Made by a program: the position numbers and the translations under genes
In this document: positions 1 to 5,397 of the stretch, piece after piece
Numbering within the stretch: position 1 is the stretch's first letter
Layout of the letters: each line of letters begins with the position of its first letter
IMG/VR virus record: IMGVR_UViG_2671181012_000016
Source: a virus
Taxonomy: Duplodnaviria > Heunggongvirae > Uroviricota > Caudoviricetes
Length of the DNA stretch: 5,397 nt
Strand: one strand, 5' to 3'
The notes under the pieces: model-generated
What the model was told of the DNA's origin: nothing
Seen by the model: the letters and a program-made list of their open reading frames with translations, nothing else
Databases searched by the model: none

Positions 1-717
1 ATGGATGATAACAATATATCGGTCAAACAATATATTATTTATTCGGTTATGAATGATTTAATTACTGGTGGGCGAGAATCTTCAGTTTTAAACGTTCCTG
101 TATCTTTATCCCCGAGAAACTCCACCATAGAGGCTATAAAACGCTTGATTGATGATATAAGAGATTATTTTTATAAATCAAAATATCCAACAAGAGAATT
201 TCTTTTGTGTTATGGTTTAGAATCAAGTGAAATCGAGCAATATCCTATTGAATTAGCTGCAAAAATTGATTCATGTGGTTTTTTAATATTTGATAGTAAA
301 CTATCTTGTCAGGTTGTCGATACTTTAAATTCAGCAGTTGCATTGTACCATGTCGGAATGCGTAATCACGCAGACAAACTTACTAGAGTTGGTGTTGAGT
401 TATTGCTTAATGATTTTTTTGAAGAAATTATATCGAACCATGAAAAAGATAAAAAAATAAAGGATGCTTTATCCTTATCACAGAAAGAAAAAGCGCGCAA
501 ACCAAGAAATCATTATTACAATGAAGTTATGCACGTAATTAAACTAACATGGGAAAAGTACCCTAAAGCCAGTAAAACAGGTTTATTGAACGAGCTTTCT
601 GTTTACTACCATGGGAAAGTAAGTAAAAACACGCTAGATAGATGGATTAAAGAATCAGGGGCACAACCACCAAAGCCTGATAAATACTCTTCGTTTGAGC
701 TTGTTCACCCCCAATAG
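1..717 (+). CDS. hypothetical protein; AT-rich cargo gene with unassigned N-terminal region and C-terminal helix-turn-helix-like segment
   Basis: 238-codon ORF starting at the window edge, so the true start and RBS are not visible. Composition is clearly AT-rich (by-eye estimate ~30% GC against ~50% or more for the rest of the window). C-terminal segment KTGLLNELSVYYHGKVSKNTLDRWIKESG has helix-turn-helix character, preceded by a Lys-rich linker. No family recognised. Confidence 0.55.
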   Translation: MDDNNISVKQYIIYSVMNDLITGGRESSVLNVPVSLSPRNSTIEAIKRLIDDIRDYFYKSKYPTREFLLCYGLESSEIEQYPIELAAKIDSCGFLIFDSKLSCQVVDTLNSAVALYHVGMRNHADKLTRVGVELLLNDFFEEIISNHEKDKKIKDALSLSQKEKARKPRNHYYNEVMHVIKLTWEKYPKASKTGLLNELSVYYHGKVSKNTLDRWIKESGAQPPKPDKYSSFELVHPQ

Positions 718-797
718 CTGGCTACGGTATTTTAATAGCTGGCTATTGAGGCTAAATAACTGGTAACAGCCCCACAGCAACTGGCTATTGGGCTAAA
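713..797 (+). repeat. three phased direct repeats containing CTGGCTA (two longer copies CTGGCTATTG(A)GGCTAAA) in the intergenic region upstream of the excisionase-family gene
   Basis: AATAGCTGGCTA at 713-724 and 734-745; CTGGCTATTGAGGCTAAA at 739-756; CTGGCTATTGGGCTAAA at 781-797. Core copies start at 718, 739 and 781, i.e. spaced 21 and 42 bp (same helical face). Confidence 0.45.
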
Positions 798-822
798 AAC
801 AAAATACTCATTGATTGATATT

Positions 823-856
823 TATCACCGTTGTTACTTAGACGTACACGGTGATA
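823..856 (+). promoter_or_regulatory. inverted repeat TATCACCG / CGGTGATA overlapping the putative ribosome-binding site of the downstream HTH gene
   Basis: TATCACCG at 823-830 and its exact reverse complement CGGTGATA at 849-856, separated by 18 nt. The right arm contains GGTGA (850-854), the likely Shine-Dalgarno for the ATG at 860. Confidence 0.3.
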
Positions 857-859
857 GAT

Positions 860-1069
860 ATGAATTTAAAGAAATCTGATTTATCAACTGACCGCCTTAC
901 ACGTGCTGAAGCTGCTGCCTACCTTGGCGTTAACAATCAAACACTGGCGAACTGGGCGTGTACTGGCAAGGTAAAAATCCCTTTCCATAAGCTTGGTCGC
1001 AAAGTGCTGTATATGCGCACTGATCTCGATGCTTATCTTGCATCCACTCGCAGAACGCAGACGGTGTAA
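860..1069 (+). CDS. excisionase-family helix-turn-helix DNA-binding protein (AlpA/Vis-like regulator or excisionase)
   Basis: 69-aa product with LTRAEAAAYLGVNNQTLANWACTGKVKIPFHKLGRKVLYMRTDLDAYL, matching the pattern of excisionase-type (MerR-like) HTH domains (hydrophobic-EAA-LGVS-TLYRW-GK-P-K-GRK-RF-DL-WL). ATG at 860 is preceded by GGTGA; the ORF track starts at an in-frame GTG at 851. Stop TAA at 1067-1069. Confidence 0.8.
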   Translation: MNLKKSDLSTDRLTRAEAAAYLGVNNQTLANWACTGKVKIPFHKLGRKVLYMRTDLDAYLASTRRTQTV

Positions 1070-4184: not shown

Positions 4185-4417
4185 TAACTGTTCACCACTG
4201 TTCACTCTGTCATAAATATCTTTTATATCAGTATATTATAGGGTGAACAGTTATTTATGAACTGTTCACCAAACTATTCACTGTTCACCTTTTTGATTGT
4301 TTATTGAGCTTCAAGGGTGAACAGTGGTGAATAGTTGGTGAATAGTTTTTGTGAAACTGTTCACCCCTTAACATTATGAATTAAAAGATAAAATATCAAA
4401 AGGTGAACAGGTGAAGG
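4185..4417. repeat. replication-origin iteron array (P4 crr/ori-like), TGTTCACC octamers in both orientations with AT-rich spacers
   Basis: Perfect TGTTCACC at 4189-4196, 4263-4270, 4282-4289 and 4358-4365. Perfect inverted GGTGAACA at 4252-4259, 4316-4323 and 4402-4409. Variants TGTTCACT 4199-4206, TATTCAC 4275-4281, GGTGAATA 4326-4333 and 4337-4344, GTGAAGG 4411-4417. AT-rich stretches at 4211-4240 and 4371-4400. Two tandem ~65-75 bp units (4186-4260, 4261-4324) share the layout ACTGTTCACC ... CTGTTCAC ... AT-rich ... GGGTGAACAG. Confidence 0.85.
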
Positions 4418-4461
4418 GTTAAAACGCAAAAATTTTAATTTACTGCTGTGAGATAAAGCCT

Positions 4462-4707
4462 ATGACAGCGAAGCACACAAAAAAATCACAATCGCACGCC
4501 CTTGATTTGACGGAACACTGGTTAAGGGTGTCGATAAAAATCATCGACCGCAACGCCGGGGAAGGATATGCGAAAGCACATCCCGAACTGATTAGCGCAT
4601 TCATGACAACGGCAGCTGCAAACTTTGCCACGCTGACAGAGCGGGAGATTGCCGAAGCGGAACAGGTAACAACCATCAACGTTAAAACCGGAGAGGTGAA
4701 ATCATGA
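4462..4707 (+). CDS. hypothetical protein
   Basis: 81-aa ORF with a weak RBS. Its stop TGA (4705-4707) overlaps the ATG (4704-4706) of the SSB gene as ATGA, which supports it being a real coupled gene. Confidence 0.5.
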   Translation: MTAKHTKKSQSHALDLTEHWLRVSIKIIDRNAGEGYAKAHPELISAFMTTAAANFATLTEREIAEAEQVTTINVKTGEVKS

Positions 4708-5124: not shown

Positions 5125-5397
5125 ATGGTACATGACCGCATAGCGGAAGAACTCGAAGCGAAAGGATTTTACCGGAGGGCGGCGGCGCGATGGGGTGAAG
5201 TCATGATGCTGGTGGAGACAGACAAGGAACGGCATCACATCACGATGCGACGGCTGGAATGTTCCAGGAAGGCACAGAGGCCACCGGAGCCGCCTGATAA
5301 TTTCGGAGACCTGAGAAATGCAGTTAATCGCACTTGTGCCGAAATGGGTATAGATGGTGCTGGTGATGAAATATGGCGCAATTACCAGGACAGCTAA
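5125..5397 (+). CDS. PerC-family transcriptional regulator-like protein
   Basis: 90-aa product from ATG 5125 with RBS GAGGGGG (5113-5119) just after the SSB stop. N-terminal IAEELEAKGFYRRAAARWGEVM resembles, from memory, the N-terminal WRRAA-containing motif of PerC/Pch regulators. Stop TAA at 5395-5397. The in-frame upstream extension to 5005 overlaps ssb and is not used. Confidence 0.6.
   Translation: MVHDRIAEELEAKGFYRRAAARWGEVMMLVETDKERHHITMRRLECSRKAQRPPEPPDNFGDLRNAVNRTCAEMGIDGAGDEIWRNYQDS

Follow-up and report, generated by a model that had tools for sequence, protein, structure and literature searches.

A conserved integrase-linked protein family as a candidate DNA-binding gatekeeper of alpA in capsid-forming PICIs at tRNA-Ile

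AlpA is the master activator in Gram-negative PICIs and activates its own promoter (PMC6092414). Unlike the islands governed by Stl or Rpr, Gram-negative PICIs are described as being controlled by the AlpA activator, with no repressor known, and the presence of a global repressor has been stated as unclear (PMC6092414). Helper phages induce alpA transcription in these islands through an unidentified factor (PMC6092414). Capsid-forming PICIs (cf-PICIs) have been defined by the presence of int, alpA, a primase/replication module and their own capsid and packaging genes, by a size of about 15 kb and by site-specific insertion (bioRxiv 10.1101/2022.09.08.507074). Here, we analysed a stretch of 5,397 nucleotides, referred to as the window. 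Of 5426 complete E. coli genomes, 24 contain this DNA. According to the open reading frame listing, its first gene, ORF1 (positions 1..717, plus strand), starts with an ATG codon and codes for a protein of 238 amino acids. It is followed by alpA and by genes for a D5-type primase, an SSB and a PerC-family protein, and the window also contains iterons.

The first-pass annotation, which was made from the sequence of the window, had assigned the locus to a P4-like satellite. This assignment has to be revised, as the element is a PICI located in tRNA-Ile with its own capsid, protease, portal and terminase genes. In a complete relative from strain A41 (L022), int is followed by ORF1, alpA and the genes for YlcI, an Icd-like protein, DUF4222, the primase and SSB, and then by the capsid module in the order major capsid, protease, portal, connector, HNH, TerS and TerL, which ends at tRNA-Ile. 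The L022 element spans approximately 14.5 kb from the nfeF side to tRNA-Ile, and its annotation includes no psu, sid or delta gene. The element adjoins nfeF, beside a 3' tRNA fragment. Judged by its gene content and insertion, the window element is a cf-PICI by the published definition (bioRxiv 10.1101/2022.09.08.507074). In E. coli 90-9280 (L001 10587-24850), two satellites are arranged in tandem at one tRNA-Ile site. One of them, the first, is truncated behind its primase gene. The other possesses a different integrase gene, directly followed by an HTH gene and by genes for a HicB antitoxin, a HEPN-domain protein and a protease-capsid fusion. A hypothetical protein of similar size to ORF1 in the tandem neighbour element (L001 19172-19879) was considered as a homologue and rejected (BLASTP E 9).

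Further downstream in the window, the iteron GGTGAACAG occurs in ten copies with at most one mismatch at positions 4188-4410 on both strands, whereas about one copy would be expected in the whole window. These copies lie in an AT-rich gap after the primase gene, which presumably is the replication origin. A further copy with one mismatch is located inside the 3' end of ORF1 (701-709) and is probably due to chance. At positions 1465-1537 of the minus strand, we noted a sub-threshold match to the SymR antitoxin RNA (Rfam, 34.7 bits, E 7e-4). The region directly precedes the start of the Icd-like gene and is antisense to it, its predicted folding energy is -38.9 kcal/mol (z -6.3), and it could be regarded as a candidate antisense or immunity RNA. 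The last gene of the window, at positions 5125-5397 of the plus strand, is a full-length PerC-family gene (Pfam E 5.4e-42). The PerC-like protein of another E. coli PICI has been reported to repress, rather than activate, the LEE virulence locus (PMC11773190).

In complete genomes, a gene coding for a tyrosine integrase is located directly before ORF1, and the suspicion of the first-pass annotation that a partner gene might lie upstream of the window was thus well founded. In strain 90-9280 (L001), the reading frame of the 473-aa integrase differs from that of ORF1 and extends 8 nt into it (ATGGATGA). The two are thus distinct genes that form an int-ORF1 pair with a start/stop overlap, and ORF1, the second of the pair, is not a fragment of a longer upstream gene. 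Among the 38 loci with at least 1300 nt of upstream DNA, 37 have an ORF1 family member directly after an integrase gene of one clade (473-490 aa, Arm-DNA-bind_3/Phage_integrase), with an overlap of the int stop and the ORF1 start that measures 1-19 nt across loci. The order int-ORF1-alpA is kept in E. coli, Salmonella, Proteus, Superficieibacter, other assemblies and 29 IMG/VR contigs. The remainder of these elements differs, with D5 primase, RepA-type helicase, DUF5906 or Toprim-DUF927 genes and various capsid modules. The integrase of this clade is found in 85 E. coli genomes at a nucleotide identity of at least 95%. Six loci picked for this integrase but lacking the window allele (L014, L017-L021) likewise have a family member after int, in the form of 228-aa or 266-aa alleles (profile E ~1e-42), and all sampled elements with an ORF1-type integrase carry one (profile E 1e-42 to 1e-63). 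PICIs with other integrases have different genes or none at the place between int and alpA. Based on this synteny, ORF1 is a fixed component of one integrase module. The interval between int and alpA had been taken for a variable cargo slot, a view that, by the first-pass annotation's own account, would be weakened by conservation of the gene in all related elements; finding the same family at the same fixed place argues against variable cargo.

Several observations concern the surroundings of this gene pair. The integrases of the clade possess a C-terminal extension of approximately 45 residues past the catalytic Tyr region (L001 11850-12008), which contains the helix motif L-S-D/E-x-E-K-R-x-L-I/L-F (SDxEKRxLxF). 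The helix is retained across ORF1 alleles, and only the last ~10 residues of Int vary with the allele. In a PICI located at rcnR with another integrase (L015 2322-3176), a DUF6387 gene overlaps the int stop and precedes alpA. Kinship of this gene with ORF1 was rejected, as there is no visible similarity and no Pfam match in ORF1. An int-coupled gene ahead of alpA may be a more general trait of PICIs. The gene between int and alpA in the EcCIMP1 paper is a different, small ORF and was set aside as a counterpart of ORF1. Annotation pipelines label ORF1 as 'hypothetical', and virus-prediction pipelines often cut contigs at its start codon. Eight IMG/VR contigs (L023, L028, L030, L033, L034, L040, L043 and L044) start at or within a few bases of this codon, and prophage-boundary prediction appears to cut these satellites systematically between int and ORF1. 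Two copies of the locus are decayed. In one of them (L005 8001-8909), the ORF1 stop is lost, leading to a read-through of 302 aa into the downstream repeats, and the integrase is broken into two parts; in the other (L016 3522-4271), an IS1 fragment takes the place of the ORF1 3' end and the repeats.

The AT-richness of the first 717 bp that had been noted from the sequence was confirmed. The GC content is 0.29-0.37 over positions 1-750 and 0.43-0.57 (about 50%) for most of the remaining window, in which the iteron/ori region at positions 4200-4500 is the sole further AT-rich stretch. This composition had been interpreted as a sign of separately acquired cargo. However, the part coding for the N-terminal region of the ORF1 family has a GC content of 29-38% in nine loci, and the integrase bodies have about 51% in eight of them and 39% in the ninth. 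AT-richness is therefore a trait of the whole family and provides no evidence for a recent separate acquisition in the window element. Compared with a 97%-identical allele, the dN/dS ratio of ORF1 is 0.25 overall, 0.59 for the N part and 0.065 for the C part, all based on small counts. Due to the overall ratio and the approximately 130 clusters that match the family profile, we count ORF1 as a real gene.

That ORF1 resembles no recognisable family, as the first-pass annotation had stated, was borne out by searches against Pfam, PHROGs, NCBIfam and PADLOC, none of which gave a significant match. No defence family was found in PADLOC-DB at E values up to 1, no regulator in PHROGs below an E value of 0.01, and no helix-turn-helix model of Pfam above the gathering threshold, nor was there a match to HTH_17. 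When 90 family members were compared with Pfam, no model covered the family, and faint matches to HTH_32, HTH_Tnp_Tc3_2 and Rho_N were seen in one or two members. Profile searches of PDB sequences and a fold search of the PDB gave no match to the family, and no homology to Stl/Rpr was found in the PDB, by sequence and fold, or in PHROGs. A word-indexed search with ORF1 retrieved 11 clusters only. By contrast, a profile search of 1.84 billion representatives with E values up to 1e-3 retrieved 130 clusters (50% identity) of proteins with 190-280 aa each, all matched through the C-terminal part. By comparison of sequences and of the predicted fold, ORF1 is a member of an uncharacterised protein family outside any curated family.

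Based on alignments, the charge distribution and an AlphaFold model, the protein can be divided into a hypervariable acidic N-terminal module (residues 1-95), a conserved helical core that includes one long helix (residues 96-166), a conserved basic three-helix domain (residues 167-219) and a conserved tail (residues 220-238; PPKPDKYSSFELVHPQ). The model, which was built with 90 sequences (pLDDT 91.3, pTM 0.74), is all-helical and consists of five short helices, a helical hairpin with a long helix from residue 121 to 166, three helices between residues 173 and 219 and an ordered tail. The C-terminal ~75 residues are almost invariant across the family (KASKPRNxYYxEVMxVIxLTWEKYPxASKTGL...VSRNxLxxWIKxSG...PPKPxKYxxFELVFPQ), whereas the N-terminal ~95 residues diverge strongly. 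The C-terminal 72 residues of ORF1 have a pI of 9.5, with a median net charge of +6 in the family, and the remainder is acidic. N-types and C-types occur in all combinations, indicating that the two parts recombine independently. The C-terminal HTH-like segment VSKNTLDRWIKESG that had been pointed out before corresponds to helix 3 (residues 209-219) of the confidently modelled three-helix domain. The stretch described as a Lys-rich linker is instead modelled as the end of the single long helix (residues 121-166). Given the predicted basic, helix-turn-helix-like C-terminus, the earlier suggestion that ORF1 could be a DNA-binding regulator is the best reading of this protein.

Candidate binding sites for such a protein are present between the ORF1 stop codon and alpA, a distance of 141-143 nt from stop to alpA ATG in most loci. 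Four palindromic 12-mers start at positions 714, 735, 756 and 777 and are thus exactly 21 bp apart. Site 1 (ATAGCTGGCTAC, 714..725) overlaps the ORF1 stop codon TAG, and site 2 (ATAGCTGGCTAT, 735..746) is the near-palindrome ATAGC-TG-GCTAT; both share the form ATAGCTGGCTA(C/T). Site 3 (ATAACTGGTAAC, 756..767) is a degenerate copy, which was recognised by its sequence and the 21-bp autocorrelation and keeps the same register. Site 4 (GCAACTGGCTAT, 777..788) has a flank, GCTATTGGG (784-792), that mirrors CCCAATAGC (710-718) of site 1. In 16 of 17 divergent representative loci, the best autocorrelation lag is 20-22 bp. The sequence of the array varies from locus to locus and its architecture is kept, with repeats of the types TAGCTGGCTA, TAGCATGCTA, TAGCGAGCTA, AATCCAGAT, GACGCGTT, TTAGCCAGCTAA, CATAGCGAGCTATG and GCAGG; the AATCCAGAT-type array consists of three direct copies and one inverted copy. 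In the complete 23-kb locus L022, the 10-mer core (at most one mismatch) is found only at two adjacent intergenic positions, which are 2.3 kb from attL, and no copy of the motif occurs near attL or attR. Pairing of the palindromes in RNA, in place of protein binding, is disfavoured, as subfamily II has three direct repeats and a strict phasing of 20-22 bp has no rationale for an RNA. The repeats were also rejected as arm-type sites of the integrase, since loci with unrelated repeats share an Int of at least 95% identity and since the array is located 2.3 kb away from attL.

Among the proteins encoded nearby, the C-terminal part of ORF1 is the one that varies together with the array. For 22 representative loci, the array distance correlates with the distance of the helix-turn-helix-like C-domain of ORF1 (Spearman 0.60), and in a partial Mantel test controlling for AlpA, r was 0.61 (p 0.0005). 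In the same 22 loci, the correlation of the array distance was 0.03 for AlpA and 0.03 for its N-terminal 22 residues. The AlpA recognition helix QTLANWA and the wing are invariant across loci, and YlcI is identical between loci that carry unrelated arrays. As both proteins are invariant while the sites vary, AlpA and YlcI are disfavoured as binders of the array. The region coding for the C-domain adjoins the array, and linkage contributes to the co-variation; however, the 5' end of alpA is equally near without showing a correlation, so this objection is limited and partly controlled for. The window and the Salmonella locus L002 have nearly the same sites, yet helix 3 differs at three positions (VSKNTLDRW and VCENTLGRW), suggesting that specificity may lie elsewhere in the C-terminal domain. 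Going by the co-variation, ORF1 most likely binds the phased array just upstream of alpA.

The region is also exchanged between elements. L001 and L014 are approximately 100% identical through int up to about 70-100 nt before ORF1, but share less than 45% identity over ORF1 and the intergenic array. An identity of 95% resumes near window position 935, which corresponds to alpA codon ~26. In the comparison with the Salmonella locus L002, the replacement is confined to the N-terminal part of ORF1. In E. coli, ORF1, its putative sites and the first ~26 codons of alpA are, judging from these alignments, exchanged as one cassette of about 1 kb in elements that are otherwise 95-100% identical. ORF1 had been considered an exchangeable gene, and it is indeed swapped between near-identical elements, but unlike accessory cargo it is accompanied by its own putative sites, with which it forms a cassette. 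By analogy, this is the behaviour of immunity or specificity regions and not of accessory cargo.

The alpA gene itself (851/860-1069, plus strand) codes for an HTH_17 protein of the AlpA/excisionase family (Pfam E 1.4e-11). Its leader can be folded into a hairpin (818..862, plus strand; -20.3 kcal/mol, z -5.1), the 5' arm of which, UAUCACCGU, is predicted to pair with the Shine-Dalgarno sequence GGUGAU and the spacer up to the AUG. The AUCACC of this arm mimics the 16S anti-Shine-Dalgarno sequence. As TATCACCG, the arm also corresponds to the consensus of a lambda operator half-site. RNAalifold predicted 13 pairs for the leader, five of them with compensatory changes. Comparable hairpins are found in four of the seven other folded loci (L007, L008, L009 and L013; z -4.5 to -5.3), and the hairpin is weak or absent in L010, L012 and L014. 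In L046-L051, the Shine-Dalgarno sequence is GGAGCU and the arm is changed to GGCUUC, giving nine pairs including two G-U wobbles; such wobble pairs favour an RNA structure over a DNA palindrome. An Rfam search of the window gave no match in the ORF1-alpA region. According to the folding predictions, a conserved RNA hairpin is thus positioned to hide the ribosome-binding site and start codon of alpA. PICIs in tRNA-Ile2 with distinctive integrases have been described as being without alpA (PMC10111431). In our analysis, every tRNA-Ile-site locus examined has a clear HTH_17 alpA gene, and that of L013 had escaped the gene caller. The reported absence of alpA (PMC10111431) may therefore be a gene-calling artefact in some cases.

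We propose that ORF1 is a locus-specific DNA-binding gatekeeper of alpA, probably a repressor, that is co-expressed with the integrase, and give this reading about even odds (a probability of roughly 0.5). The int-ORF1 operon and the self-activating alpA gene are separated by the array, and no terminator was found between ORF1 and alpA, which makes gatekeeping the most likely role. To this end, ORF1 would be translated from the int transcript, with its start codon overlapping the int stop, and would probably dimerise through the long helix. The basic C-terminal three-helix domain would bind the four palindromic 12-mers, all of which face the same side of the DNA helix due to the 21-bp repeat. 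As a repressor or roadblock, ORF1 would keep alpA silent while the island is integrated. The RNA hairpin could provide a second safeguard by blocking AlpA translation from int-ORF1 read-through transcripts, and transcripts that start inside the hairpin loop would escape this block. The hypervariable N-terminal module is a candidate input domain that, in analogy to SaPI Stl, might for instance respond to a helper-phage protein. A bolder and doubtful extension of this analogy is that the ORF1 family might be the missing master repressor and sensor of this Gram-negative PICI lineage, and as such an independently arisen functional analogue of SaPI Stl. If this were true, ORF1 would hold alpA off through its operators until a helper-phage protein, recognised by the exchangeable N module, lifted the repression. 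Both the induction of alpA by helper phages in these islands and the rapid turnover of alleles would then be explained.

The geometry of the region speaks against gatekeeping, as any plausible alpA promoter would lie downstream of the candidate sites and without overlap with them, an arrangement that would suit an activator too. The best -35-like hexamers before alpA are TTGATT/TTGATA at positions 811-820, and the sites end approximately 25 bp upstream of them. A scan for sigma-70 promoters gave no convincing plus-strand site between ORF1 and alpA, as would be expected if the promoter were activator-dependent. The same protein and sites could therefore constitute an activator upstream of a weak alpA promoter, switched by a helper-phage signal to the N module, and helper phages do induce alpA transcription (PMC6092414). 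We regard this as unlikely, as AlpA already activates its own promoter and PICIs without an ORF1-type gene are still phage-inducible (PMC6092414). In addition, an arrangement of four phased palindromes starting from the stop codon of a read-through operon is better suited to a roadblock or repressor, although an argument from geometry is weak either way.

The same array is left without explanation if ORF1 is anti-phage or accessory cargo, that is, a single-gene defence or superinfection-exclusion factor with a variable N-terminus that tracks phage targets. Satellites do carry defence genes (PMC11364771), and the N module is hypervariable, AT-rich and has the higher dN/dS ratio of 0.59. We nevertheless consider this improbable: PADLOC gave no match, the all-helical protein of 238 aa has no enzymatic or effector domain, and the same family occupies a fixed position across the integrase clade. 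Furthermore, the reported locations are downstream of pri for the defence region of PICIs and near cos for the P4 hotspot, and do not include the int-alpA gap (PMC11364771). The tight connection with int might instead point to an accessory of the integrase, a directionality factor or architectural protein that is translationally coupled to Int and serves excision or integration, and the unusual conserved C-terminal extension of the clade's Int could dock such a partner. This seems very improbable to us, since the only putative site copies of the complete element are far from attL and none is near either attachment site, and directionality factors normally come from the family of the neighbouring AlpA (PMC10111431). 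Moreover, the part of Int that follows the ORF1 allele is limited to its last few residues and shows no sign of co-adaptation. The gatekeeper model is the one we favour. Our analysis provides an unannotated family of ~130 clusters without a Pfam model, candidate operators and a predicted translational lock on alpA. With the family, the operators and the hairpin, the question of how alpA is controlled in Gram-negative PICIs, by a repressor and with which helper trigger (PMC6092414), becomes testable. In addition, the ORF1 family and the 21-bp array can serve as markers for one integrase clade among the capsid-forming satellites in tRNA-Ile.

Of the described systems, the AlpA/Vis/Xis proteins with an HTH_17 domain are DNA-binding regulators of small elements encoded in the integration zone, as ORF1 is predicted to be, and AlpA is its neighbour and likely control target. 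ORF1 differs from them in having no HTH_17 match, in being three times larger and in carrying a variable module. With the defence cargo of satellites, as found in the P4 psu-int hotspot and the PICI region downstream of pri, ORF1 shares the features of an AT-rich, allele-rich gene near the integrase. However, its family and position are fixed, it matches no defence model, it has its own site array and its host element is a cf-PICI. The closest functional analogues of ORF1 would be the SaPI Stl/Rpr repressors and the lambdoid immunity cassettes. SaPI Stl and the Rpr proteins of Gram-positive PICIs are, like ORF1, encoded beside int and are expressed with int in the quiescent island, as is proposed for ORF1, and they combine a conserved DNA-binding domain, which is predicted in ORF1, with a highly variable domain. 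Their position gives them control over the switch for the onset of the island cycle, which might also hold for ORF1, whose function we infer from its context. In contrast to Stl/Rpr, ORF1 shows no similarity to them in sequence or fold, its predicted DNA-binding domain is C-terminal, and it is co-directional with, rather than divergent from, the genes it would control. The lambdoid immunity regions differ from the ORF1 cassette in their unrelated protein and in sites that overlap divergent promoters, whereas the ORF1 sites are four palindromes in strict 21-bp phase upstream of one gene and ORF1 has no visible cleavage or SOS-related domain. As in the lambdoid regions, however, a regulator gene and its putative cognate sites are swapped as a block in the ORF1 cassette, which measures about 1 kb and is exchanged between elements that otherwise share 95-100% identity, with several alternative specificities at one locus.
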